A stretch of DNA of 63,486 bases, filler included, from Thermodesulfobacteriota bacterium (GCA_036381125.1; 6 parts of 6 records of this genome joined end to end with filler, not necessarily neighbours in it), one strand, 5' to 3'. Numbered from the whole stretch's first letter, positions 1-45,344 are shown. Numbers and translations are program-made. The notes: generated by a model from the letters alone, not told the origin.

Positions 1-1500
<1,500 letters not shown>

Positions 1501-1595
1501 GAAGCTCTCTTACCCCCTCCTGGGAGAATTCTTCGGGGCAACCGGAAATAGTGCCCCCAAGGCGCGCGAGCGCTGCTCGCCCGCAAAGTGCCCGA

Positions 1596-1624
1596 ATGCT
1601 ACCACCCCACCCGGGCCAACGCAA
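1596..1624 (-). promoter_or_regulatory. Putative sigma70 promoter for rpsA
   Basis: Reverse strand TTGCGT-N17-TAGCAT about 95 nt upstream of the rpsA ATG. Confidence 0.5.
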
Positions 1625-1654
1625 GTAAGGGCGTAAATTTCCTTCGTTTTGGGG

Positions 1655-2356
1655 TCACGACCCCCCGCCGGCCCGAACCCGGGCGACCTCTGCTGCCATC
1701 AGGTCGACCACCTCGTCGATGGAGAGCGGCCCGGTGTCGAGCAAGATGGCGTCCGGCGCCCGGACGAGGGGCGAGTGCGCCCGGGTCCGGTCCCGCTCGT
1801 CCCGAGTGGCCATGTCCCCGGCGAGCCAGACCCTGTCGACGACGTTCCCCTGCTCGGCCAGCTCGGCCGCGCGGCGCGCGACCCGGACCTCGAAGGGGGC
1901 CGTGAGAAAGAACTTCACCTCCGCGTCCGGGAAGACGACGGTCCCGATGTCGCGGCCGTCGAGCACCACGTCGCCCGCCTGCCCGAGCCGCCGCTGCTGG
2001 GCCACGAGGCTGCGGCGGACCCCCTCGAGCGTCGAGACCCGGGAGGCGGCCTCGGCCACCTCCGGCCGCCGGATCTGGGCCGTGAGGTCCTCGCCGTTTA
2101 CGACGACCCGCGGCCGGGCGTCGGGCGACGGGTTGGACCGGTCGGGCGGGAACTCGAACGCCAGGGAGTCGGCCAGGCCGGCAAGGCGCTGCTCGTCGTC
2201 GAACGGGATGCCCTGGCGCATGGCCAGCCAGGCGACCGCCCGGTACATGGCCCCGGTGTCGATGTACGAGAGGCCGAGCCGCACGGCCAGGCGGCGTGCG
2301 GCGGTGCTCTTCCCGGAGCCCGCGGGGCCGTCGATGGCCACTCTGATCGGCCTCAC
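1655..2356 (-). CDS. cmk: Cytidylate kinase
   Basis: VAIDGPAGSGKST, YIDTGAMYRA, DGRDIGTVVFPDA motifs; GTG start at 2356. Confidence 0.96.
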   Translation of the reverse strand: MRPIRVAIDGPAGSGKSTAARRLAVRLGLSYIDTGAMYRAVAWLAMRQGIPFDDEQRLAGLADSLAFEFPPDRSNPSPDARPRVVVNGEDLTAQIRRPEVAEAASRVSTLEGVRRSLVAQQRRLGQAGDVVLDGRDIGTVVFPDAEVKFFLTAPFEVRVARRAAELAEQGNVVDRVWLAGDMATRDERDRTRAHSPLVRAPDAILLDTGPLSIDEVVDLMAAEVARVRAGGGS

Positions 2357-2539
2357 GACCTGCTCACCTGCTGGCACGGGCCTTCCGCCGCGCCACCCCC
2401 GCCCGGCGGGGTCCCCCGCGGCCGCCCGCGACCAGGCGCGCGCGGGCCCTCCGCGGGGCCCCCGGCGCACCGGGAGGCCTCCCTCCGCGGCCCGACGCGA
2501 GAAGCGGCGTTCGCAAGGCGTACCTGAGAAGGTACTTCA

Positions 2540-3856
2540 TCACCGTCTGAGGCCGTCGAGGAGGTCGGCGAAGCCGGGGAAGGATGTGTCGATGCAGGCG
2601 GCGTCCTCGACCACGGTCTCCCCGGCGGCCACGAGGCCGGCGACCGCGGCCGACATGGCGGTCCGGTGGTCCCCGCGCGAGCCGACGCGGGCGCCGCGGA
2701 GCGGGCGGCCCCCCTCGATGACCATCCCGTCGGGGGTCGGCGTCACGCGCCCCCCCATGCGGGTCAGCGTCTCGGCCATCGAGGCGATCCGGTCGGTCTC
2801 CTTGACCCGCAACTCCTGGGCGTCGTGGATGACCGTCGTCCCCTCGGCCACCGCCGCGGCGACGGTCAGGGCCGGCAGCTCGTCGATGGCCCGCACCACG
2901 AGGTCGCCGGCGATCTCGGTCCCCCGCAGCCGGCTCGCCCGCACGCGCACGTCGCCGACCGGCTCGGGGCCGTCGTCCCGCCGCGCGACGACCTCGATGC
3001 TGCCCCCCATGGCCCGGAGCACGTCGAGCGCCCCGGTCCGCGTCGGGTTGAGCCCGACCTCCCGCAGGAGGAGGTCCGAGCCCGGGGTGATCAGCGCCGC
3101 GACGAGGAAGAAGGTGGCCGAGGAGAAGTCTCCCGGCACGGCGAACGCCCGCCCCGACAGGCGCGTCCCCCCGCGGACGGCGACGCCGTGGCGGCCCAGC
3201 CGGTGGAGGTCGGCCCCCATGAAGGCGAGCATCCGCTCGGTGTGGTCGCGAGACACCCGCGGCTCCTCGACCACGGTCTCGCCGTCGGCCACGAGGCCCG
3301 CAAGGAGGAGGGCCGACTTCACCTGGGCGCTCGCCACGGGCGAGTCGTAGTGGATGCCCGTGAGCGGCGAGCCGACGATGGTGAGCGGCGCCCGCGTGCC
3401 GCCCTGGCGGCCGATGATCCGGGCCCCCATGCGGGCGAGCGGATCGATCACCCGCCCCATCGGGCGACTCCGCAGCGACGCGTCGCCCGTGAGGACCGAG
3501 ACGAAGGGCTGACCGGCGAGGATGCCGGTGAGCAGCCGGGTCGTCGTGCCGGAGTTGCCGCAGTCGAGGACGTCGTCCGGCTCGACCAGGTGCTGGCCGG
3601 CCCGGCGCGGGCCGCCCGCCCCCCTGATCGTGACCGTCGTCCCCTCGAGGCGGACGTCGACCCCCATCCGCCGGAACGCCTCGACCGTCCGGTGGTTGTC
3701 CTCGCCGGTGAGGAAGCCGGTCGCGCGGGTCTCCCCTTCGGCCAGGGCGCCGAGCATGACGGCCCGGTGGGAGATCGACTTGTCGCCCGGCACGCGCGCC
3801 TCGCCGCGGAGGGGCGCGCCGGACGTGACGGTGAGCGTGCGGGGGGTGCCGGTCAT
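2540..3856 (-). CDS. aroA: 3-phosphoshikimate 1-carboxyvinyltransferase
   Basis: PGDKSISHRA, DCGNSGTT, SAQVKSA, ELRVKETDRI, GDHRTAM motifs; ATG at 3856. Confidence 0.97.
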   Translation of the reverse strand: MTGTPRTLTVTSGAPLRGEARVPGDKSISHRAVMLGALAEGETRATGFLTGEDNHRTVEAFRRMGVDVRLEGTTVTIRGAGGPRRAGQHLVEPDDVLDCGNSGTTTRLLTGILAGQPFVSVLTGDASLRSRPMGRVIDPLARMGARIIGRQGGTRAPLTIVGSPLTGIHYDSPVASAQVKSALLLAGLVADGETVVEEPRVSRDHTERMLAFMGADLHRLGRHGVAVRGGTRLSGRAFAVPGDFSSATFFLVAALITPGSDLLLREVGLNPTRTGALDVLRAMGGSIEVVARRDDGPEPVGDVRVRASRLRGTEIAGDLVVRAIDELPALTVAAAVAEGTTVIHDAQELRVKETDRIASMAETLTRMGGRVTPTPDGMVIEGGRPLRGARVGSRGDHRTAMSAAVAGLVAAGETVVEDAACIDTSFPGFADLLDGLRR

Positions 3857-4719
3857 CCGATGCGGTCCCTGAGCGCCTTCGCCGAGGCGAAGGTCCGCTC
3901 GACGAGGTCGCCGTCCCCGGCGCTGAGCCCGGCCCGAAGCCGGGTCACCTGCGCCGAGAAGGCGTCGATCGCCTCGATGAGGTGGCGGCGGTTCGCCAGG
4001 CAGATGCCGCGCCAGAGGGCGGGCGACGAGGCGCCGATCCGGGTCGTGTCCCTGAGCCCGCCGCCCGAGAGGCGCAGGGCCGCATCGGCCAGGGTCGGGT
4101 CCTCGGCAAGCGTCGCCAGGAGGGCGTAGACGACCAGGTGCGGCAGGTGCGACACCGCGGCGAAGGCGGCGTCGTGCGCCTCCGGCTCCATTCGCAGGAC
4201 CGTGGCGCCGAGGAGACGCCACAGCTCCGTGACCCGGGCCACGGCCGCCTCGTCGGTGCCGGCGAGCGGCGTGACGACGGCGAGGCGCCCCGCGAAGAGG
4301 TCCGCGCTGGCCGCGGCGAGCCCCGAGCGCTCCGTGCCGGCGATGGGGTGGCCAGGCACGAACGGGACGCCGGCGGCGGCGGCCGGCTCGCGGAGGGCGG
4401 CGATGACCGGCCCCTTCACGCTCCCCACGTCGGTCACGACGGCTCCGCGGCCGAGGTGCGGCAGGGCGGCCCGCGCCGCGCCGGCCATCGACTCGATGGG
4501 GGTCGCGAGGAGCAACAGGTCGGCCCCTCGCGCGGCAGCCGCCGCGTCCGGGCTCGCCTCGGCCACGAGGCCGGCCGACACGGCCGCCGCGCAGGCGGCC
4601 GGGTCGGTGTCGGCGCCGGTCGCGCGCCCGAAGAGGCCGCGCGAGCGGCCGGCCGCGAGGACCGAGCCGCCGATCATGCCGAGGCCGACGACGGCTATGT
4701 GGCGGAACGGCGGGGTCAC
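3853..4719 (-). CDS. tyrA: Prephenate/arogenate dehydrogenase
   Basis: GLGMIGGS, TDVGSVKG, GHPIAGTE, SHLPH, LRDTTRIGAS motifs; GTG overlaps the aroF stop. Confidence 0.93.
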   Translation of the reverse strand: MTPPFRHIAVVGLGMIGGSVLAAGRSRGLFGRATGADTDPAACAAAVSAGLVAEASPDAAAAARGADLLLLATPIESMAGAARAALPHLGRGAVVTDVGSVKGPVIAALREPAAAAGVPFVPGHPIAGTERSGLAAASADLFAGRLAVVTPLAGTDEAAVARVTELWRLLGATVLRMEPEAHDAAFAAVSHLPHLVVYALLATLAEDPTLADAALRLSGGGLRDTTRIGASSPALWRGICLANRRHLIEAIDAFSAQVTRLRAGLSAGDGDLVERTFASAKALRDRIG

Positions 4720-5735
4720 TACATGTCTCGCCCGACGACCCGGGCGATCTGCCTGAGGTCCTGCATGAGCGAGGCGAAGCGCTTCGGCTTGAGCGCCTGG
4801 GGACCGTCGCAGAGCGCCACCTCCGGCCTGGCGTGGACCTCGATCATGATGCCGTCGGCGCCGGCCGCCACGCCCGCCCGGGCGAGCGGCTCGACGAGGC
4901 TCCACTTGCCGGTGGCGTGCGACGGGTCGACCACGATCGGCAGGTGCGTCAGCTCCTTGAGGAGCGGCACCGCCGAGATGTCGAGCGTGTTGCGCGTGGC
5001 GGTCTCGAAGGTGCGGATGCCCCGCTCGCAGAGGACGATGTCGCGGTTGCCCTCGCTCATGATGTACTCGGCCGCGAGCAGGAACTCGTTGATCGTGGCC
5101 GAGAGGCCGCGCTTGAGGAGCACCGGCTTGCGCACCTTGCCGACCTCCGTGAGGAGCCGGAAGTTCTGCATGTTGCGGGCGCCGATCTGGATCACGTCCG
5201 TGTACTTCATGATGGCCGGCAGGTCCGAGGCGTCCATCAGCTCGGTCACGACGCGCAGGCCTGTCTGCTCGCGCGCCTCCGCCAGGTACTCGAGTCCCTC
5301 CTCGCCGAGCCCCTGGAAGGCGTAGGGCGAGGTGCGCGGCTTGAACGCCCCGCCGCGGAGGAACTTCGCCCCCGCCTCCTTCACCGCGTGGGCCAGCTCG
5401 AGCACCATTCCCCGGTCCTCGACCGAGCAGGGGCCGGCGATCATCTGCACCGCCGTGCCGCCGAACACCGCGCCCCTCACGTCGATCAGCGAGTTCTCCG
5501 GCCGGAAGTCCCGCGAGGCGAGCTTGTAGGGTTTCAGGATGGGGACGACCCGCTCGACGCCCGGAAAGCCGTCGATCGGCTGCGACTGCAGGAGCGTCTC
5601 GTCGCCGATGGCCCCGATGACGGTCCGCTCGGTCCCCTTCGAGATGTGCACCCGGTACCCCATCTGCTCGAGGCGCCTGGTGACGCGCTGGATGTCCTCG
5701 TCGCTCCGATGGGTCGGCTTCATCACGATGATCAT
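4719..5735 (-). CDS. aroF: DAHP synthase (type I-beta, N-terminal regulatory domain)
   Basis: IAGPCSVE, GGAFKPRTSPYAFQG, QIGARNMQNF, LCERGIRTFE, DPSHATG. Confidence 0.95.
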   Translation of the reverse strand: MIIVMKPTHRSDEDIQRVTRRLEQMGYRVHISKGTERTVIGAIGDETLLQSQPIDGFPGVERVVPILKPYKLASRDFRPENSLIDVRGAVFGGTAVQMIAGPCSVEDRGMVLELAHAVKEAGAKFLRGGAFKPRTSPYAFQGLGEEGLEYLAEAREQTGLRVVTELMDASDLPAIMKYTDVIQIGARNMQNFRLLTEVGKVRKPVLLKRGLSATINEFLLAAEYIMSEGNRDIVLCERGIRTFETATRNTLDISAVPLLKELTHLPIVVDPSHATGKWSLVEPLARAGVAAGADGIMIEVHARPEVALCDGPQALKPKRFASLMQDLRQIARVVGRDM

Positions 5736-5827
5736 GCGTCTGTCTTCCTCTTGCCTCTACGGGCCACTGGTCCCTCTCTGCGCGCCCCGGCGCGCATCCG
5801 CGGCGTCACCCTGCGCACCGGCCGCCC

Positions 5828-6931
5828 CTAGCCCCGGAGGCACGCCGCGAGGGCGGCGACGCACCGTTCGTTCTCGATTCGCGTCCCGACCGAGATGCGG
5901 ACGTGGTCCGGCAGGCCGTAGCCGTCCACGGGGCGCACGATCACCCCCGCCCCGAGGAGCGCGTCGGCGAGCGCGGCCCCCTTGACCGGCGTCTTCACCA
6001 GCAGGAAGTTCGCCTGCGACGGCACGACCTCGAGCCCGAGGCGGCCGATCGCCTCGGCGAGGTACCGGCGCCCCTCGAGCGTCACGTCCCGGGTCGTCTC
6101 GAGATGGGACCGGTCGGCGAGGGCCGCCTCGGCCGCGGCGAGGGCCGGGCGCGACACGTTGAAGGGGGGCCGCACGCGGTTCAGGTCGGCCGCCACGGCC
6201 GGCGTCGTGAGGCCGTAGCCGACCCGGAGGCCGGCCAGGCCGTAGATCTTCGAGAACGTCCGGAGGACGAGGACGGGCGGGCGTCCCGGCCTGCCGTCCC
6301 GGAGGTACGCGAGCCCGTCCGGCACGTCCGACCGGTCCACGAACTCGATGTACGCCTCGTCGACGACGAGCAGCAGGTCCGGCGGCAGCCGGTCAACGAA
6401 CCGGCCGAAGGCCGGCTCGGTGACCACCGTCCCGGTCGGGTTGTTCGGATTGCAGACGAAGACGATCCGCGTCCTCGGCGTGACCGCGGCCAGCATCGCG
6501 TCCAGGTCGTGCACGAGGCCCCGGCACGGCACCTCGACCGGCCGGCCGGCCGCCGCCGTCACGGCGAGCTTGTAGACCACGAACGCGGGCGCGGCCATGA
6601 CCGCCTCGTCGCCCGGCCCCACGTAGGCCCCGACCGCCAGCCGGATCAGCTCCGAGGAGCCGGCGCCGACGACGATGCCGTCGGCGGCGAGCCCGAAGTG
6701 GGCGGCAAGCCTCTGGCGGAGCGCCCAGCCGCCGTCGTCCGGGTAGCGGTGCACGTCGGCCAGCGCCTCGCGCGCCGCGGCGAGCGCGAGCGGCGACGGG
6801 CCGACGGGGTTCTCGTTTGAGGCGAGCTTGACCGAGTCGGAGATGCCGAGTTCCCGCTCGACCTCCTCGATCGGCTTGCCCGGCACGTACGGGACGAGGC
6901 CGGCGACGTGCGCCGGCGGTCGGAGTGTCAT
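5828..6931 (-). CDS. hisC: Histidinol-phosphate/aromatic aminotransferase
   Basis: YVPGKPIEE, KLASNENPVG, CNPNNPTG, DEAY, RTFSKIYGLAGLRVGY. Confidence 0.94.
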   Translation of the reverse strand: MTLRPPAHVAGLVPYVPGKPIEEVERELGISDSVKLASNENPVGPSPLALAAAREALADVHRYPDDGGWALRQRLAAHFGLAADGIVVGAGSSELIRLAVGAYVGPGDEAVMAAPAFVVYKLAVTAAAGRPVEVPCRGLVHDLDAMLAAVTPRTRIVFVCNPNNPTGTVVTEPAFGRFVDRLPPDLLLVVDEAYIEFVDRSDVPDGLAYLRDGRPGRPPVLVLRTFSKIYGLAGLRVGYGLTTPAVAADLNRVRPPFNVSRPALAAAEAALADRSHLETTRDVTLEGRRYLAEAIGRLGLEVVPSQANFLLVKTPVKGAALADALLGAGVIVRPVDGYGLPDHVRISVGTRIENERCVAALAACLRG

Positions 6932-6951
6932 GGCGCCCCCCTCCGCCGGCC

Positions 6952-8034
6952 CTAACCCCGAGCCTTCGGGTAGGAGCCGAGGACCTTCACGAACTGGGTG
7001 TAGTGCCGAAGCTCGTCGAACGCGGCAGCGAGCCGGGGGTCCGACATGTGACCCTCGACGTCGAGGAAGAACACGTAGTCCCAGGCCCGCTTCTTGGTGG
7101 GACGGCTCTCGATCTTGGTGACGTTCACCCCCCGCGACGCGAAGCAGCCGAGGATGCGGTGGAGGATGCCGACCTCGTCCTTGATCGAGAAGAGGAGCGA
7201 CGTCTTGTCCGCGGCGCCCCGCTCCGGCTCCTTCTGGCCGATGACGAGGAAGCGCGTGGTGTTGTGCGGGTTGTCCTGGATGCGCCGCGCGACCGGCCGG
7301 AGGTTGTAGAGCGACCCCGCGACCTCGCTCGCGATGGCGGCGGCGGTGGGGTCGTCGACGACCATCTGCGCGGCGGCCGACGTGCTGGTGACGTCCACCG
7401 TCGGCACGTTGGGCAGGTGCTTCTGGAGCCAGAGGCGGCACTGGGCGATCGCCTGCGGGTGCGAGTAGATCTTCTGCACGTCCTCGATCCGGCCGGAGAC
7501 GCTCAGCAGGTCGTGGTGGATCACGAGCTGGATCTCGGCGAAGATCTTCAGGGCCGAGTCGAGGAACATGTCGAGGGTGTGGGTCACCACCCCCTCGGTG
7601 GAGTTCTCGATGGGGACGACGCCGAACTGCACCCGCCCGCGCTCGACCTCGTCGAAGACGTCGGCGATGGTTCGGGCCGCGACGTACGTCGCCGAGCTGC
7701 CGAACTGCTGGACGGCCGCCTGGTGCGTGAAGCTCGCCTTGGGGCCGAAGAAGGCCACCTGGACCGGCTGCTCGAGGGCGAGCGACGCCGAGATGATCTC
7801 CCGGTAGACGGTGTGGAGCGCCTCGGTCGGGAACGGCCCGGTGTTGATCCGGGCGAGCCGCTCGTGGACCTCGCGCTCGCGCTCGGGCGCGTAGAAGCTC
7901 CTGCCCGTCTCGCGCTTGAGGTCGCCCACGCGGAGCACCGCGGCGGCTCGGCGGTTGAGGAGCGCGACGATCTCCGCGTCGACCGCGTCGATCTCCTGGC
8001 GCAGGCGGGCGAGTTCGGCCGACGGGTCGGCCAT
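6952..8034 (-). CDS. pheA: Chorismate mutase/prephenate dehydratase (P-protein)
   Basis: N-terminal CM (LRQEIDAVD), VVPIENSTEG, YSHPQAIAQC, NTTRF, ACT domain (KIESRP...YVFFLD); ATG at 8034. Confidence 0.96.
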   Translation of the reverse strand: MADPSAELARLRQEIDAVDAEIVALLNRRAAAVLRVGDLKRETGRSFYAPEREREVHERLARINTGPFPTEALHTVYREIISASLALEQPVQVAFFGPKASFTHQAAVQQFGSSATYVAARTIADVFDEVERGRVQFGVVPIENSTEGVVTHTLDMFLDSALKIFAEIQLVIHHDLLSVSGRIEDVQKIYSHPQAIAQCRLWLQKHLPNVPTVDVTSTSAAAQMVVDDPTAAAIASEVAGSLYNLRPVARRIQDNPHNTTRFLVIGQKEPERGAADKTSLLFSIKDEVGILHRILGCFASRGVNVTKIESRPTKKRAWDYVFFLDVEGHMSDPRLAAAFDELRHYTQFVKVLGSYPKARG

Positions 8035-8064
8035 GAGGGTGCCTCCGGAGCAAGGAATCCCGGG

Positions 8065-8094
8065 AATATAGCAGGGATATCGGCGGGATGGCAA
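8065..8094 (-). promoter_or_regulatory. Putative sigma70 promoter of the pheA operon
   Basis: Reverse strand TTGCCA-N18-TATATT with extended -10 TGn, about 30 nt upstream of pheA. Confidence 0.55.
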
Positions 8095-8444
8095 CTGGCC
8101 CGGCCGACCGGGCCGCCTCGCGCCGCGGCGGGCCGGCGACCGCGCCCACGCAACTGCATCCACGGAGCCGGAGGGATCGGATACACCGGGTGTGCGCGCG
8201 GATCGCATCGGCCCGGCTGAGCCGTCCGTTGCCCGATGCACTGTGGCTCCGCTTCTCTCTTGACGCGATACGGCGACGCGCGTACTCCTGTTACCACGGA
8301 TGGCGGATCGCGCGCGTCGATCCGCGCAGCCCGCTCGGGCGACGTGCTCGTCTCGACGTGCCCGCACCGCGTGCTCCGCATCCAGACGATCCCGCCGCCC
8401 ACCCCCTCGCTCTGAAGCGTCACCCTCCCGGAGGGAGACCGCCG

Positions 8445-8792
8445 ATGTTGATGAGACTCCTGTTCTCGATCCTGGCGCTCGTGGCGATCGCCTGGGCGAC
8501 GCCGGCGACGGCGGCCCCCACGGCCCTCGCCGACTCGGACCTCGACTCCATCGTCGCGGGACACGACTGGAAGGACCGGCACGTCGACCGCAAGAAGGAC
8601 TTCGACAGGAAGGACTTCGACAAGAAGGACCGCGGCAAGCACCTCGGCCAGAAGAAGGACAGGAAGCACAAGCACTTCGCCGACAAGAAGAAGGACAGGG
8701 CGCACAAGCGCTTCGCGCACCAGGACCGCAAGCATCACCTCGTGAAGAAGATCCTCGTCATCAAGCACGTTCGCCTCCTGAACCTTCACTAG
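8445..8792 (+). CDS. Small secreted Lys/His/Asp-rich protein with C39-type leader (putative cargo of Fap-like system), 115 aa
   Basis: GGAGGGAG RBS; Sec signal (MLMRLLFSILALVAIAWATPATA); ALADSDLDSIVAG leader motif; typical GC-rich third codon positions; directly upstream of a C39 peptidase. Confidence 0.85.
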   Translation: MLMRLLFSILALVAIAWATPATAAPTALADSDLDSIVAGHDWKDRHVDRKKDFDRKDFDKKDRGKHLGQKKDRKHKHFADKKKDRAHKRFAHQDRKHHLVKKILVIKHVRLLNLH

Positions 8793-8876
8793 CCGCTCGC
8801 GCCCCGGCCCCCCCGGCGAGCCGGAGCTCGCCGGGGGCCGCCCGGGACGCGACGGTTCCGGAGTCGCAAGAGGCCG

Positions 8877-9539
8877 ATGCACCCGAACCGGGCGGCCCGC
8901 TGCCGCCTCACCCTGGCCCTCGTCGCCCTTGCCTCCGCGGCCGGCGCCTGCGCCGCCGCACCGGCCCCGGACGCGGGCGCGGCCGGACCGGGCAAGGCCG
9001 TCCGCTCCCTCCTCGAGATCCGCCGGGCGGGCGTCGTCATCCAGGAATGGGACCTGAGCTGCGGCGCCGCGGCGCTCAGCACCGTGCTCTCCTACGACTA
9101 CGACGACTGGACGCCCGAGCGCGAAATCGCCCTCTCGATCCTCGAGCAGACCGATCCGGCGCGCGTGCAGCGGCGCGGCGGCTTCTCGCTCCTCGACCTC
9201 AAGCGCTTCGCCGAGAGCCGCGGCTACAGGGCGACCGGCTACCGCGGCCTCACGATCGAGGACCTCACGGCCCTCGAGGCGCCGGCGATCGTGCCGGTTC
9301 GCGTCAAGGGGTACGAGCACTTCGTCGTCGTCCGCGGCGTGCGAGGCGACCGGGTGCACCTCGCCGATCCGGCCTTCGGCAACCTGACACTGCGGCGCGA
9401 CCAGTTCCGGCGCGTGTGGTACGACGGGATCGGCTTCGTCGTCGACCGCCCGGCTCCCGAGGCGCCCGATCCGGCGCCCGACCCGATCCCCGACACGCCC
9501 GGCGACGCGCCGACCGGCGAGATGCGGCACGAGCCGTGA
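8877..9539 (+). CDS. Secreted C39 family cysteine peptidase (FapD-like)
   Basis: Signal peptide; VVIQEWDLSCGAAAL (Q/C), GGFSLLDLKRF, YEHFVV (H), LADPAFGN (D); no ABC domain. Confidence 0.9.
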   Translation: MHPNRAARCRLTLALVALASAAGACAAAPAPDAGAAGPGKAVRSLLEIRRAGVVIQEWDLSCGAAALSTVLSYDYDDWTPEREIALSILEQTDPARVQRRGGFSLLDLKRFAESRGYRATGYRGLTIEDLTALEAPAIVPVRVKGYEHFVVVRGVRGDRVHLADPAFGNLTLRRDQFRRVWYDGIGFVVDRPAPEAPDPAPDPIPDTPGDAPTGEMRHEP

Positions 9540-10510
9540 GCGGGCCGCGGCGCCGCCGCGGCGTCTGGCTTGCGGTCCTCGCCGCCGCAGCGGCACTCGA
9601 GGCCGGCGCACCGGACCCGATCCGGGCCGAGGAGCCGACCGAGTCGGACGAGGAGGCCGAGGAGGCGCAACTGCTGACCGCGCTCGAGCGGGCGCTCATC
9701 CAGCGCGGCGGGCTCCTGCTGCCGCCCTGGCGGGTCGAGATCGAGCCCAGCCTCACGTACACCCAGTCGACCCGGCAGACGCTCGCCACGGACGACGCCG
9801 GGGTCGCCTTCACCGAACGGGTGCAGCGCGACACCCTCGACCCCGAGGTGACCTTCAGGCTCGGGCTGCCGTGGCGGCTCCAGCTCGCGACGACCGTCCC
9901 CTTCCGCTACGAGCGGCAGCGGACCGTGATCGCGGACAGCGCCGAGGAGACGCGCGATCGGTTCGGGCTCGGCGACGTCGACGTGGAGCTGAGCGCGCAC
10001 CTCCTGCAGGAGCGCGGGCTCCTGCCCGACCTGCTGGCGAGCGCCCGCTGGAAGAGCACGACCGGCGAGGGGCCGTTCGAGGTCGGCCCGGGCGAGATCC
10101 CCCTCGGCACCGGCTTCGACGCGATCGAGGTGACCCTCACCGCCACGCGGTCGCGCGACCCCGTCGTCTTCATCGTGGACCTGACCTACACCGTGAACGT
10201 CTCGACCGCAACGTCGCTCGGACGGATCGACCCGGGCGACGAGATCGGCTACGCGCTCGGGCTCGTGCTCGCGCTGAACCCGGAGACCTCCCTCGACCTC
10301 ACGTTCGAGCACCGGTTCGCCCGTCACACGACCCTGGCGGGCGAGCAGGTGCCGGGCACCTCCGAGTCGATCGGCCTGGTCTCGCTCGGGACCTCGTACG
10401 TCCTCGCGCGCAACGTCTCGCTCGACCTGTCGGTGGGGTTCGGCGTGACCGCCGACGCCCCGGACGTTCAGGTGACGCTCGCGGTCCCGGTCCGCTTCCC
10501 CCCCCGCTGA
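9536..10510 (+). CDS. Outer-membrane beta-barrel transporter, FapF/COG4313-like
   Basis: GTG overlaps C39 stop; signal peptide; LERALIQRGGLLLP plug-like helix; amphipathic strands, GLGDVDV, PLGTGF, C-terminal VPVRF. Confidence 0.85.
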   Translation: MSGPRRRRGVWLAVLAAAAALEAGAPDPIRAEEPTESDEEAEEAQLLTALERALIQRGGLLLPPWRVEIEPSLTYTQSTRQTLATDDAGVAFTERVQRDTLDPEVTFRLGLPWRLQLATTVPFRYERQRTVIADSAEETRDRFGLGDVDVELSAHLLQERGLLPDLLASARWKSTTGEGPFEVGPGEIPLGTGFDAIEVTLTATRSRDPVVFIVDLTYTVNVSTATSLGRIDPGDEIGYALGLVLALNPETSLDLTFEHRFARHTTLAGEQVPGTSESIGLVSLGTSYVLARNVSLDLSVGFGVTADAPDVQVTLAVPVRFPPR

Positions 10511-10621
10511 CCGCCCGCCGCTCACCGCTCGCCCGGGCGCCCTGCCCCGGCTCGCGCCCCTCGACCCTCCAGCGCCCCGGCCGTCCACCGGGACCGGTCC
10601 GACGCGCGTGACGTACCCGCG

Positions 10622-12517
10622 TCACCCGGCCGTCGCCGCCTGCGCCGCCCGGCGGCCTCGCACGACCTGCGACGCGAGCGCCGCGACGAGGCAGCCGAAG
10701 CCGGCCGAGTCGGTCACGAGGCCGGGGTCGATGAGGAGCAGCGCCGAGGCGCCGAGGAGCAGTCGCTCGAGCCGGGTCGCAGGCCGGCGCAGGTAGCCGC
10801 GGAGCGCCGCGGCGAGCGCGACGGCGCCGGTCGCGGCGGTGACGACCGCCCAGGCCACCTCGATCGGTTCGCCGACGAGCAGGAGCGCCGGACCGAAGAC
10901 GAACATGTACGGCACGAGGAACCCGGCGGCGCCAGCCTTCACCGCCTCGACTCCCGACTCCCAGAGGCGCGCCCCGCCGATGCCGGCCGCCGCGTAGACC
11001 GCCAGCGCCACCGGCGGCGTGATGGCCGACAGGCAGGCGAAGTAGAGCACGAACAGGTGCGCCGCGACCTCGGGGACGCCGAGCCGGATCAGGGCCGGGA
11101 TGAGGAGCGCGGCCTGCACGATGTACGCGGGGGTCGTCGGCATCCCCATGCCGAGCACGATGCCGGCCGCCATCGTGAGAAGAAGCGCGAGCACGAGGTG
11201 GTTGCCGGCCACGGCCAGGACGAGCGACGTGAAGCGGATGCCGACGCCGGTGAGGGCGACGACCCCCACGATGATCCCCGCCACGGCGCACGTGGCGGCG
11301 ACCGCGAGCGTGTTGCGGGCCCCCTGCTCGAGCGCCTCGAGGATCGAGCGGGGCCCCATGCGCGTCTCCCGCCTGAGCCACGAGAGGAGCACCACCGACG
11401 CCGTCGACCACAGGGCGGCGTAGGTCGCCGTGAAGCCGGCGACCATGAAGCCCAGGATCACGATCACGGGCAGGAAGAGGTGCCCGCGGCGCAGAACGAC
11501 CTCGCGCAGGCTCGGCAGCTCGGCCTTCGGCACCCCCTTGAGGTCCGACCGCAGCGCCTCGAAGTGGATCGAGAAGAAGAGGGCGACGTAATAGAGCAGG
11601 GCCGGGATGAGCGCGTGCCTGGCCACCTGGATGTAGGGGATCCCGGTGAACTCCGCCATGACGAAAGCGGCCGCCCCCATGACCGGCGGCATGAGCTGCC
11701 CGCCGGTGGAGGCGGTGGCCTCGACGGCGGCGGCGAAGGCCGGCCGGAACCCGGCCCGCTTCATGAGGGGGATCGTGAGCCAGCCGTCCACCATGACGTT
11801 GGCGACGGCGCTGCCCGAAACGGTGCCGAACAGCGTCGAGGAGACGACGGAGACCTTCCCGGGGCCGCCGCGGCTGCCGCCGGTCAGCGCCGTCGCGAAG
11901 TCGGTGAAGAACTGACCGACCCCCGACGCCGCGAGGAAGGCGCCGAAGACCACGAACACGATCACGTACGTCGCGCTGACCGCCAGCGGGATGCCGAAGA
12001 TCCCCTCGGTCGTGAGGTAGAGCTGGTCGAGGACCAGCTCCAGGCTGAACCCGGGATGGGCGAGGAGCCCCGGCAGCCACGGCCCGAGGAAGGCGTACAC
12101 GAGGAACACGACGGCCGTGATCGGCAGCACCCAGCCGGTCGTTCGCCTCGCCGCCTCGAGCACGAGGAGCACGGTGAGACAGCCGAAGAGCACGTCGGCG
12201 CGCCGGAGCGGGTCGGCGTAGTAGATGCGGGTGACCACGTACTCGTAGTTCCAGAAGAGATACCCCACCGCCGCCACGGCCAGCGCCATCAGGGCGAGGT
12301 CGAGCGCCCAGCCGAGGCGGCGCCCGCGAGCGCGGGCGCCGTTCGGCATGGTGAGGAAGATCAGGAGGAGCGCGAAGAGGAGGTGCGTCCCCCGCAGGAT
12401 GATCGCCTCCGGCGTGCCGGTGGCGACGACGTAGAGGTGGTAGACCGACATCCCGATCGCGAGGAGGGCGGCCACCCTCGCGACCGGGCCGGTCAGCCTG
12501 CCAGGCTCGCGCTCCAC
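10622..12517 (-). CDS. TRAP transporter fused 4TM/12TM permease (TAXI type)
   Basis: SGSAVANV, ASTGGQLMPPVMGAAAF, GMGMPTTPAY, ITPPVALA. Confidence 0.95.
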   Translation of the reverse strand: MEREPGRLTGPVARVAALLAIGMSVYHLYVVATGTPEAIILRGTHLLFALLLIFLTMPNGARARGRRLGWALDLALMALAVAAVGYLFWNYEYVVTRIYYADPLRRADVLFGCLTVLLVLEAARRTTGWVLPITAVVFLVYAFLGPWLPGLLAHPGFSLELVLDQLYLTTEGIFGIPLAVSATYVIVFVVFGAFLAASGVGQFFTDFATALTGGSRGGPGKVSVVSSTLFGTVSGSAVANVMVDGWLTIPLMKRAGFRPAFAAAVEATASTGGQLMPPVMGAAAFVMAEFTGIPYIQVARHALIPALLYYVALFFSIHFEALRSDLKGVPKAELPSLREVVLRRGHLFLPVIVILGFMVAGFTATYAALWSTASVVLLSWLRRETRMGPRSILEALEQGARNTLAVAATCAVAGIIVGVVALTGVGIRFTSLVLAVAGNHLVLALLLTMAAGIVLGMGMPTTPAYIVQAALLIPALIRLGVPEVAAHLFVLYFACLSAITPPVALAVYAAAGIGGARLWESGVEAVKAGAAGFLVPYMFVFGPALLLVGEPIEVAWAVVTAATGAVALAAALRGYLRRPATRLERLLLGASALLLIDPGLVTDSAGFGCLVAALASQVVRGRRAAQAATAG

Positions 12518-12523
12518 GGGCGG

Positions 12524-13489
12524 CTACGGCTTGCCGACCTCGTCGAAGTACCGCTTCGCACCCGGGTGGAACGGCACCCCCACGTCCACCGCCATCTGCG
12601 AGACGGGCCGCCCCTTCATGGCCGAGACCACGACCGCGAGCTGGTCGCGGTTCTCGACGATCGCCTTCGTGACGCGGTAGACGAGGTCCTCCGGCACCTT
12701 CGCGTTGGCCACGATGTGCGTGTAGGTGCCGACCGTGACCGCGTCGGTCTCCTGGCCGGGGTAGGTCCCCCTGGGGATCGTGAGGGTGGCATAGCCGACG
12801 TTCTTGGCCTTGAGCTTCGCGAGCGCCTCCGGCCCGATGGAGAGCACGTGCACGGGCCGCGCCGTCGCGAGGTCCTGCACCGACGAGGCCGGGATCGTCG
12901 TGATGAGGGCGAAGGCGTCGGCCTGCCGGTTCTTGATCAGCTCGACGGCGTCGGTGTAGCTCACGTGATGGACCTTCGCGAGGTCGTCGTAGGAGAGGCC
13001 GTGCACCTCGAGCAGCTCGCGGGCGATCTGCTCGCCGGTGTTGCCGCGCGGCTGCGTGGCGAGTCGCTTGCCCTTGAGGTCGGCCACGGTGCGGATGCCG
13101 GAGTCGGCCGGCACGACCACCTGGAAGTACTGGTCGTAGAGGGTGACGACGTTGAGGACGTCCCTCGTCGGCGACTCGAACGGCGCCCGCCCGGCGTACC
13201 CGTCGGCGGTGGAGTTGGCGTTGCCGAAGCCGAGATCCGCCCGCCCGCCCTGCAGCGCCTTCACGTTGGCAATTCCGGCGCCCGGCAGAACGGTCACCTG
13301 GACGCCCGGGGCGTCCTTCTGGACCAGCTCTGCGATCGCGCCGGCGAGGGGGATCCAGCTCCCTCCCTGTGGACCGCTCATGAGCTTGAGCTGACGCACG
13401 GCGCCGGTCTGGCCCTGGGCGGAGGCCGGCACGGGCGCGGCGGCGAGCGCGAGGAGCGCGAGGACGGCGAGCAACGACAGACGGCGCAT
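12524..13489 (-). CDS. TAXI family TRAP solute-binding protein
   Basis: Signal peptide; SGPQGGSW, DLKGKR, IPRGTYPG, VPFHPGAKRYF. Confidence 0.93.
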   Translation of the reverse strand: MRRLSLLAVLALLALAAAPVPASAQGQTGAVRQLKLMSGPQGGSWIPLAGAIAELVQKDAPGVQVTVLPGAGIANVKALQGGRADLGFGNANSTADGYAGRAPFESPTRDVLNVVTLYDQYFQVVVPADSGIRTVADLKGKRLATQPRGNTGEQIARELLEVHGLSYDDLAKVHHVSYTDAVELIKNRQADAFALITTIPASSVQDLATARPVHVLSIGPEALAKLKAKNVGYATLTIPRGTYPGQETDAVTVGTYTHIVANAKVPEDLVYRVTKAIVENRDQLAVVVSAMKGRPVSQMAVDVGVPFHPGAKRYFDEVGKP

Positions 13490-13631
13490 GGCACCTCCTC
13501 CGGATGTGCCGGCAGGGACGCCGGCACGAGCGATCGGGACCGGTGTCGCGCGTCGGAGCTTCGGGCCGCCCGCGTATGGAACATCATTTTATTCAGACTT
13601 CGCGCCGCCTGGCAAGCCGTGACTCGCTATC

Positions 13632-14325
13632 ATGGGCGGCATGACGAGCATGAACGCTGGTCGAGCGGTGGTGGAGGCGATGCGCCGAGCCGGCATCACG
13701 CGGGCCTTCGGGGTGCCGGGGGAAAGCTTCCTCGCCGTGCTCGACGCCTTCTACGAGGCCCCCCTGACCTTCGTCTCGACCCGCCACGAGGGGGGCGCCG
13801 CCTTCATGGCGTCCGGCTACGCGAAGACGAGCGGCGAGATCGGTGTCTGCATGGGGACGCGGGCCGTCGGCTCGAGCAACATGGCGATCGGGATCCACAC
13901 CGCGCGGCAGGACTCGACCGCGATGCTGGCCATCGCGGGGCAGGTGAACCGGGACTTCATCGGCCGCGAGGCCTTCCAGGAGCTCGACCTCGTCGCCGTC
14001 TTCTCCCGGTACTGCAAGTGGGCGGTCCAGATCGACGACGCCGCCCGCGTGCCCGAGCAGATGGCACGGGCGATCCGGATCGCGACGACCGGGCGGCCCG
14101 GCCCGGTCCTGGTGGCGCTCCCCGAGGACATGCTCCGCGACACGGCGGACATGCGCTTCGAAGAGGTGCGCGCCGTCGCGCCGCCGCCGGCCGACCCGTC
14201 CGCGCTCGACGAGGCGCTTGCGGCGCTCCTCGCCGCCGAGCGCCCGCTCGTCCTGGCCGGAGGGGGGGTCCTCGCCTCCCCTGGCGCGTGCGACGCGCTC
14301 GTCCGGTTCGCCGAGGCCGCCGAGG
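13632..14325 (+). CDS. Thiamine-pyrophosphate-binding enzyme (acetolactate synthase-like), truncated by contig end
   Basis: FGVPGESFL, RHEGGAAFMA, EAFQELD, GRPGPVLVALPEDML. Confidence 0.9.
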
Positions 14326-14425
14326 NNNNNNNNNNNNNNNNNNNNNNNNNNNNNNNNNNNNNNNNNNNNTTAATTAATTAANNNNNNNNNNNNNNNNNNN
14401 NNNNNNNNNNNNNNNNNNNNNNNNN
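14326..14425. other. Artificial contig spacer
   Basis: N run containing TTAATTAATTAA six-frame stop linker. Confidence 0.99.
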
Positions 14426-20467: not shown

Positions 20468-20567
20468 NNNNNNNNNNNNNNNNNNNNNNNNNNNNNNNNN
20501 NNNNNNNNNNNTTAATTAATTAANNNNNNNNNNNNNNNNNNNNNNNNNNNNNNNNNNNNNNNNNNNN
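20468..20567. other. Artificial contig spacer
   Basis: N run with TTAATTAATTAA. Confidence 0.99.
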
Positions 20568-31449: not shown

Positions 31450-31549
31450 NNNNNNNNNNNNNNNNNNNNNNNNNNNNNNNNNNNNNNNNNNNNTTAATTA
31501 ATTAANNNNNNNNNNNNNNNNNNNNNNNNNNNNNNNNNNNNNNNNNNNN
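31450..31549. other. Artificial contig spacer
   Basis: N run with TTAATTAATTAA. Confidence 0.99.
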
Positions 31550-38845: not shown

Positions 38846-38945
38846 NNNNNNNNNNNNNNNNNNNNNNNNNNNNNNNNNNNNNNNNNNNNTTAATTAATTA
38901 ANNNNNNNNNNNNNNNNNNNNNNNNNNNNNNNNNNNNNNNNNNNN
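38846..38945. other. Artificial contig spacer
   Basis: N run with TTAATTAATTAA. Confidence 0.99.
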
Positions 38946-45244: not shown

Positions 45245-45344
45245 NNNNNNNNNNNNNNNNNNNNNNNNNNNNNNNNNNNNNNNNNNNNTTAATTAATTAA
45301 NNNNNNNNNNNNNNNNNNNNNNNNNNNNNNNNNNNNNNNNNNNN
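45245..45344. other. Artificial contig spacer
   Basis: N run with TTAATTAATTAA. Confidence 0.99.

Follow-up and report, generated by a model that had tools for sequence, protein, structure and literature searches.

A candidate three-gene export unit with a C39 peptidase, a coil-less FapF-fold barrel and a polycationic cargo in a Thermodesulfobacteriota genome

What a stand-alone, exported C39 peptidase and a FapF-like outer-membrane barrel would process and export, when the only other gene beside them encodes a small and highly charged protein, is the question raised by a locus of a Thermodesulfobacteriota bacterium (GCA_036381125.1), located in a stretch of DNA of 63,486 nucleotides (nt; hereafter, the window). 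The relevance of the locus lies in the statement, made in passages of two papers, that for FapD-type periplasmic C39 peptidases neither the substrate nor the recognition signal is known (PMC5557850, PMC6173800). The best reading of the results, which we regard as somewhat probable, is that the three genes form a self-contained FapD/FapF-type export unit in which leader-directed cleavage would be followed by the export of a surface polycation, whose function is a prediction. A first-pass annotation made from this DNA had already described the three genes and proposed a minimal Fap-like secretion module with a non-amyloid cargo; its observation is confirmed, and its interpretation is partly supported, as detailed below.

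The leader of the cargo appears, from comparison with related loci, to be real and portable, and this is well supported. A C39 profile of 48 rows yielded 487 confirmed metagenome matches, the best 80 of which were fetched as loci; C39 lay on the plus strand in 84 loci, and in 69 of them the upstream DNA reached 650 nt or more. Upstream of C39, 67 of these 69 loci encode a signal peptide and, behind it, a [LIM]xDxx[LM]Dx[VI]TA[GA]-type motif, a figure that expresses recurrence and not an independent rate, because the pattern was defined after the first examples had been seen and many loci are near-identical. The two misses were L004, which has a related ELxxxRG-type motif, and L019. The residue at −2 was Ala in all 80 related leaders and that at −1 was Gly or Ala, where the pattern allowed only Ala or Gly. 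The same leader stands on at least five unrelated core types, namely Asn/Gln beta repeats (a Fap-like Asn/Gln pattern was seen in 45 of 99 cargos), NPG/CxxC, small beta-rich, Ala/Thr-rich and Lys/His/Asp (K/H/D) cores. The C39-type leader behind a signal peptide, as proposed by the first-pass annotation, is therefore recovered, together with its association with variable cores beside such gene pairs, whereas the charged core occurs only in the window and in one close relative (locus L001, from a public genome labelled Thermodesulfobacteriota, with the same three genes). An additional 29 loci, obtained from 301 genomes of one order (39 with a match), included Ala/Thr-rich cargo proteins; most of these short loci were without a leader of the window type, and their C39s were of the canonical kind.

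Other cargos with this leader were also observed. The gene before C39 in L002, L003, L052, L070, L072, L073, L075 and L082 encodes an unannotated family of cargos of 100-120 amino acids (aa) with an NPG-like motif and often CxxC, for which no Pfam match was obtained in the six tested; these cargos stand in three-gene units, a hairpin with a U-tract comes after several of them, and the upstream gene in L002, L072 and L073 presumably encodes aspartate dehydrogenase. Paired Ala/Thr/Gly-rich, near-uncharged secreted proteins (101 and 143-148 aa) precede C39 and the barrel in L105, L106 and L107 (280-1150 on the C39 strand), while small beta-rich Val/Asn cargos are found in L056 (148-438) and L062 (2079-2384). 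The N-terminus of the L062 cargo is the closest to the signal-leader junction of the window cargo, and its core contains Cys-Gly-Cys and poly-Gly; its BLB8/JUQZ-1 match was set aside as being below the cutoff, and JUQZ-1 comes from Brevibacillus.

The leader was then placed against the genome of the window, assembly G000 (4.33 Mb, 382 contigs, 73% GC), which is 96% complete by markers, yet in which rpoB was not found, so that the assembly is incomplete. Of the 7.2 million six-frame 12-mers of G000, the window leader scored highest with a profile derived from 74 leaders at other loci, reaching 19.9 bits against 19.3 for the next, which lies in a segment without a signal peptide; this score is low for the family, whose leave-one-out median is 32.5. 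A leader hidden Markov model that included the window sequence gave one significant match each in G000 and in the same-genus genome G001, and no second gene combining signal and leader was detected in the incomplete G000. Queries with 117 proteins from related cargos and loci, and with an Asn/Gln module profile of 44 sequences, matched only the peptidase and the barrel in G000. No FapA/B/C/E-like subunit was found in the unit or in the incomplete G000 by related-protein queries, the Pseudomonas FapA/B/C/E models not having been searched genome-wide, and the single non-amyloid cargo of the earlier proposal agrees with this lack of any detected Fap/Fil subunit homologue elsewhere in the assembly.

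The peptidase would supply the partner of this leader. The 220-aa protein, a stand-alone exported C39 in the first-pass annotation too, belongs to Peptidase_C39 (PF03412, E 5.7e-17) and retains the catalytic residues. Its best NCBIfam matches were FilB (119.7 bits, cutoff 475) and FapD (111.9 bits, cutoff 330), and a tree of 54 rows, selected from the loci and homologues, placed it in a 43-row clade (support 99/99) that excludes the canonical FapD/FilB-like rows; support for its position inside this clade is weak (80/91). A lipobox-like pattern, represented in the window C39 by its Cys25, occurs in 8 of 114 C39 homologues, making the enzyme a possible lipoprotein. A complex of C39 residues 38-195 with cargo residues 24-59 scored 0.70 vs 0.01 for the best control, with runs agreeing in at least 66% of contacts and a partner predicted local distance difference test (pLDDT) score of at least 57; the pass mark, which 116 of 157 solved complexes reach as against 2 of 215 mismatched pairs, applies roughly here, and the pass denotes likeness and no proof of binding, since C39-leader complexes have already been solved. 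The leader is helical in a single-sequence model of the cargo; in the complex, L33 and I36 pack on F103-L106 and L28 on G121-Y122, and the confident interface includes the leader as far as His40 and, on the enzyme, residues 59-63 and 146-149, where C62 and H148 lie. I36, L33 and L28 correspond to the hydrophobic −4/−7/−12 positions, and passages on LahT describe binding of the leader to C39 by the same register (PMC6363468). The window leader is thus modelled as docking in the C39 groove in the canonical −4/−7/−12 register. A C39 family search gave two matches in G000, both in frames that are not long (248 and 330 aa). A second C39 (G000:C154) was rejected as part of the unit, as it belongs to a DUF6627-linked cassette; this locus (L102, 920-2441), which is kept in G001, encodes a DUF6627 protein with an internal Gly-Gly leader-like motif, the C39 and a TPR-like protein.

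The cargo core that follows IVAG contains 19 Lys, 12 Asp, 11 His and 9 Arg among its 76 residues, exactly as the first-pass annotation had counted, with no Glu and three Asn/Gln. Its net charge is +16 plus 11 His, its computed isoelectric point 10.5 and its mass 9.5 kDa, and it is built of KKDR/KKDF-type repeats that end in an aliphatic-basic tail. When 29,226 six-frame segments of the genome are ranked by the K/H/D content of a 60-aa stretch, the cargo comes first with 0.62, ahead of 0.48 for the next, and the charged fraction of the core is 0.67 in the window and 0.68 in L001, vs 0.02-0.28 in 98 of 99 cargos. The chemistry of the cargo is unique here; the minimal architecture is not, because single-cargo three-gene units recur in L003, L070/L075 and L073.

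The tail invites a different interpretation, in which the peptide would be an exported fibre subunit: stacked aliphatic tails would form a cross-beta or coiled core that displays the charged repeats as a brush, and C39 would perhaps act partly as a chaperone. Consistent with this, most relatives carry Asn/Gln beta-repeat cargos (the 45 of 99 given above), the V/I/L-rich tail is conserved and has a mean hydropathy of +0.63 vs −2.59 for the remainder, and behind the cargo gene lies a hairpin of the kind expected for an abundant subunit. However, three Asn/Gln in a 76-residue core are few, the Asn/Gln module profile finds nothing of the kind in the genome, and the tail itself includes several Lys, Arg and His. 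It is also predicted as a long helix in a single-sequence model of low confidence (predicted TM score 0.28), and not as the strand that had been proposed earlier. A fibre subunit is consequently considered very improbable. The terminal LLNL was rejected as the 'VLLNLN' strand of the Asn/Gln cargos, given that the orthologue ends before LLNL.

The third protein, of 324 aa, shares the fold of FapF. Its PDB sequence matches are FapF chains only (E 2.3e-10), its AlphaFold model from a 29-row alignment is a helix-plugged barrel (pLDDT 91), and its best Foldseek match is FapF 5o67 (E 1.8e-20, TM 0.83); in NCBIfam it scores 55.4 bits with FapF (cutoff 700) and 44 bits with FilC (cutoff 630). In place of the coiled coil, it has an acidic segment with a net charge of −6 in 15 residues. 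No barrel among the 29 aligned is more acidic than that of the window, whose net charge of −13 is shared by L001 only (next −10, range up to +8). This acidity fits a cargo of +16, although in one lineage and post hoc. Two candidates related to the barrel were rejected: its ALERALIQRGG segment as a second leader, being the plug helix without the −4/−7 register, and a second PF13557 match in G000 as a unit member, being a DUF3187 barrel. The latter (L098 280-2022, G000:C10) stands before an ABC substrate-binding-like gene and is kept in G001, with a gene directly upstream that we take to encode a CRP-like regulator.

A number of points weigh against export by this unit, and the missing coil is foremost among them. 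The earlier annotation of a FapF-like barrel holds for the fold, but the N-terminal periplasmic coiled coil of FapF is absent, the plug starting at residue 49; a home-made heptad score was 1.0 for the window and 3.3 for L001, vs 6.7-9.3 in the other 49 of 49 scored barrels (51 complete in the fetched loci, one unscorable). FapF truncated of its coil-bearing N-terminal periplasmic region is reported, in passages of PMC5557850, to insert in the outer membrane without supporting FapC secretion. Together, the coil loss and the truncated-FapF result constitute the main evidence against plain Fap-type export. Other full-length coil-less barrels do exist, namely P0126/P0150 (54% identity) and P0141 (28 homologues, 10 unscorable), and the P0126 barrel has a net charge of only −3. 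The match in charge between barrel and cargo amounts to one post hoc observation, because the charged core has no relatives beyond one orthologue cluster: a homologue search recovered that cluster alone (2 of 9 candidates, including the cargo itself). The cargo matched only itself among 1.84 billion representatives, it had no usable Atlas match and no Pfam family, and no relatives were found in viral contigs. The limits given above for the leader count, the complex model and the completeness of the assembly belong with these points.

The same features could be accommodated if the processed peptide did not leave the periplasm and were a basic, disordered stress protein of the Asr kind, serving as an acid or metal buffer or a chaperone, with the coil-less barrel plugged or employed in another job such as uptake. 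Like the enterobacterial acid shock protein Asr, described in passages of PMC10746267 as a disordered periplasmic chaperone, the cargo combines a signal peptide with a short, basic, repetitive and probably disordered chain, and it weakly matches the Asr model NF033636 (E 5.7e-4, 20.7 bits). Removal of the N-terminal region leaves FapF closed and unable to secrete, and the fold is common to the COG4313 uptake channels (4rl8, E 1.3e-11, TM 0.67). However, the Asr match lies below the cutoff of 50 and is absent for the orthologue, and is therefore probably compositional; unlike Asr, the window cargo is tied to a C39 leader, a peptidase and a barrel. This barrel is much nearer to FapF than to 4rl8 (E 1.8e-20 vs 1.3e-11), its gene overlaps the C39 stop codon and adjoins C39 in relatives, and a second cleavable leader would be hard to explain in a purely periplasmic protein. 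A periplasmic role thus appears unlikely, and the export reading is retained.

Conservation of the unit was considered through the L001 orthologue. The L001 cargo has 136 aa, with signal, leader and tail kept, a 23-codon in-frame insertion in the repeats and the composition kept, so the small ORF (open reading frame), for which conservation had been a point of doubt, persists in a close relative; the leaders are 88% identical. The same-genus genome G001 also carries the unit and was not counted separately. Searches of 41 and 401 genomes around G000 gave one same-genus genome and otherwise distant bacteria, G001 being the sole other genome of the G000 lineage below domain level among the genomes searched. 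Against L001, the C39 domain has a ratio of nonsynonymous to synonymous substitution rates (dN/dS) of 0.42 (p 0.02) and the barrel one of 0.45 (p 0.0008), indicating purifying selection, and all three frames are intact in both genomes, with indels in frame. Two results of this comparison add to the points against export: the cargo dN/dS was 1.14 (core 1.24), based on 8.5 synonymous changes and with p 0.70 vs neutrality, and the values of C39 and barrel (0.42-0.56) match or exceed the upper end of the range of six control genes (0.07-0.43). The C39 and barrel machine is maintained, perhaps loosely, and the cargo may be selected for composition and not sequence, or may be drifting, as far as two sequences suggest.

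Such drift is the basis of a further alternative, that of a decaying remnant, in which an ancestral leader-cargo exporter lost its coil and its cargo slipped into a low-complexity repeat under relaxed selection. The cargo dN/dS near 1.1, the value of 1.37 over the N-terminal 45 codons of the barrel, the position of C39 and barrel above most controls, the missing coil and a core unlike all 98 other cargo cores are consistent with decay. Nevertheless, the frames with their in-frame indels and high third-position G+C (GC3, 0.94-0.96) are intact in both genomes, leader, composition and tail are kept, purifying selection on C39 and barrel is significant, a coil-less barrel of 54% identity occurs elsewhere, and the cargo ratio depends on few synonymous changes. 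A remnant is accordingly regarded as quite improbable. The earlier interpretation thus stands in part, its simple Fap-type export being weakened by the coil-less barrel and by the cargo dN/dS of about 1.1, and leader-directed cleavage and export is still preferred.

Comparison with known systems suggests that the unit works like FapD/FapF with the leader logic of peptidase-containing ATP-binding cassette (ABC) transporters (PCATs), while falling outside both Fap and Fil. As in Pseudomonas Fap (fapABCDEF), a stand-alone exported C39 with intact catalytic residues stands beside a plugged FapF-fold barrel; unlike Fap, the window proteins score below the FapD and FapF cutoffs, the C39 belongs to a separate clade, no amyloid subunits were found, the barrel has no coil, and the cargo is polycationic with a canonical C39 leader. 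Passages of PMC5557850 state that Fap proteins are without canonical C39 sequences and that the target of FapD is unclear. PMC6173800 reports, in part of its text, co-located fapD/fapF outside Proteobacteria and calls the FapD substrate undetermined, and a 2026 preprint, in the portion concerned, says only that FapD takes part in precursor processing (10.64898/2026.10.01.755530). Acinetobacter Fil (FilB C39 and FilC barrel; a putative pilus) provides the best NCBIfam match of the peptidase and a match of the barrel, but both scores are far below cutoff and no FilA-type subunit or accessory genes stand beside the window pair; of five ORFs of the Fil-type locus L133 compared with G000, those of the peptidase and barrel matched, and the other three had no tblastn match at E 1e-3. 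Double-glycine export by PCATs (also ABC transporter maturation and secretion, AMS; LahT, PCAT1, ComA) shares the hydrophobic −4/−7/−12 leader for the C39 groove and a conserved leader with variable cores. In contrast, the window C39 is exported and not fused to an ABC transporter, its leader lies behind a Sec signal, and its site is Ala-Gly and not Gly-Gly, Gly-Ala or Gly-Ser; unlike bacteriocin export and that of ribosomally synthesised and post-translationally modified peptides, the unit has no modification enzyme or immunity gene. No description of a Sec-plus-double-glycine leader, a non-amyloid cargo or a coil-less pore for FapD/FapF-like pairs was found in the open-access literature, with subscription papers and the supplements of PMC5557850 (FapE motifs) and PMC6173800 (Fig. 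S1) outside the scope of the search.

The features of the unit are collected in Table 1. The window is composed of six contigs (C353-C358) joined with N spacers (14326-14425, 20468-20567, 31450-31549, 38846-38945 and 45245-45344), so adjacency across the spacers is meaningless, and the unit lies wholly within contig C353 (window 1-14325). Its three co-directional ORFs, the first of 115 aa at 8445-8792 and the last with a GTG start overlapping the C39 stop codon, are divergent from pheA (CM_2, PDT and ACT domains) and convergent with a TAXI-TRAP pair, a layout, complete on its contig, that had been read correctly at the outset. The GC3 of the cargo, C39 and barrel genes (0.96, 0.94 and 0.96) is that of genes in a 73% GC genome, and they are therefore taken as real; the second-position value (GC2) of the small ORF is 0.31. 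The TAXI-TRAP pair stands between the barrel and a thiamine-pyrophosphate enzyme gene (window 10622-13489), while in L001 (2111-2184) that gene comes immediately after the barrel, so that the pair was gained or lost at the window locus. The 84-nt spacer after the cargo folds with a minimum free energy of −58.0 kcal/mol (z −3.2); the stem is also present in L001, but with z −0.2, and post-cargo z values of −2.9 or below were obtained in 4 of 9 other small-cargo loci. This stem-loop could stabilise the cargo mRNA or favour the cargo over the downstream genes. Neither a forward sigma-70 promoter nor a U-tailed terminator could be detected for the module, the only promoter-like site being sigma-70-like and facing pheA (8094-8065, in the region 8036-8444). 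Two short inverted repeats in the cargo 5' region fold no better than shuffles (z −0.2), and Rfam gave no match in 7900-10700 at E up to 1.

Table 1. Features of the three-gene unit, in window coordinates.
Feature	Position	Strand	Remarks
Shine-Dalgarno-like GGAGGGAG	8430..8437	+	7 nt before the cargo ATG; assigned by sequence; same element before the L001 orthologue
Sec-type signal peptide, cargo residues 1-23	8445..8513	+	Cleavage near A21-T22-A23 judged by eye, without a predictor; 78% identity to L001
Double-glycine-type leader, cargo residues 24-39	8514..8561	+	L28 (−12), L33 (−7), I36 (−4), Ala-Gly (−2/−1)
Cargo core, residues 40-115 and stop	8562..8792	+	76 aa; repeats of 10-12 aa; 18-aa aliphatic-basic tail
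G+C-rich stem-loop directly after the cargo stop	8793..8855	+	12-bp inner stem 8810-8837; no U-tract
Stand-alone exported C39 cysteine peptidase, FapD/FilB-like	8877..9539	+	Q56, C62, H148, D164; lipobox-like Cys25; Pro-rich tail
FapF-fold outer-membrane beta-barrel with plug helix	9536..10510	+	Acidic segment in place of the coiled coil

Taken as an export unit, the locus could operate in four steps. All three proteins would cross the inner membrane by means of their signal peptides. Signal peptidase would then expose the 16-residue leader, whose L28, L33 and I36 are modelled as bound by the periplasmic C39, and cleavage after Ala38-Gly39 would release a 76-aa peptide starting at His40. The unfolded 9.5-kDa peptide would next pass through the plugged barrel; as this barrel is without a coiled coil, recruitment of the +16 cargo is probably electrostatic, through the acidic periplasmic segment and the acidic barrel itself, and a lipid-anchored C39 may assist. 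Outside, the peptide might act as a surface or matrix polycation, with Lys and Arg binding polyanions such as lipopolysaccharide, extracellular DNA or minerals, His and Asp binding metal ions, and the conserved aliphatic tail providing self-association or retention. This extracellular role is the weakest step and is offered tentatively. The peptide could conceivably have an antimicrobial role, although the unit contains no immunity gene.

More broadly, the pairing of C39 with a FapF-fold barrel could represent a general two-step secretion route for unrelated cargos, addressed by a portable double-glycine-type leader behind a Sec signal, of which this locus would be the most reduced form, with a coil-less acidified pore, a possibly lipid-anchored protease and one soluble His/Lys/Asp polycation, so that charge and not amyloid folding would drive recruitment or passage; we consider this generalisation possible but doubtful. 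For tests of FapD-type enzymes, a unit with one small, probably soluble cargo that bears a canonical leader would be simpler than aggregating amyloid subunits, and a 16-residue tag routing unrelated peptides over the outer membrane could serve as a secretion tool. A working coil-less pore, if true, would challenge the need for the periplasmic N-terminal region in secretion.

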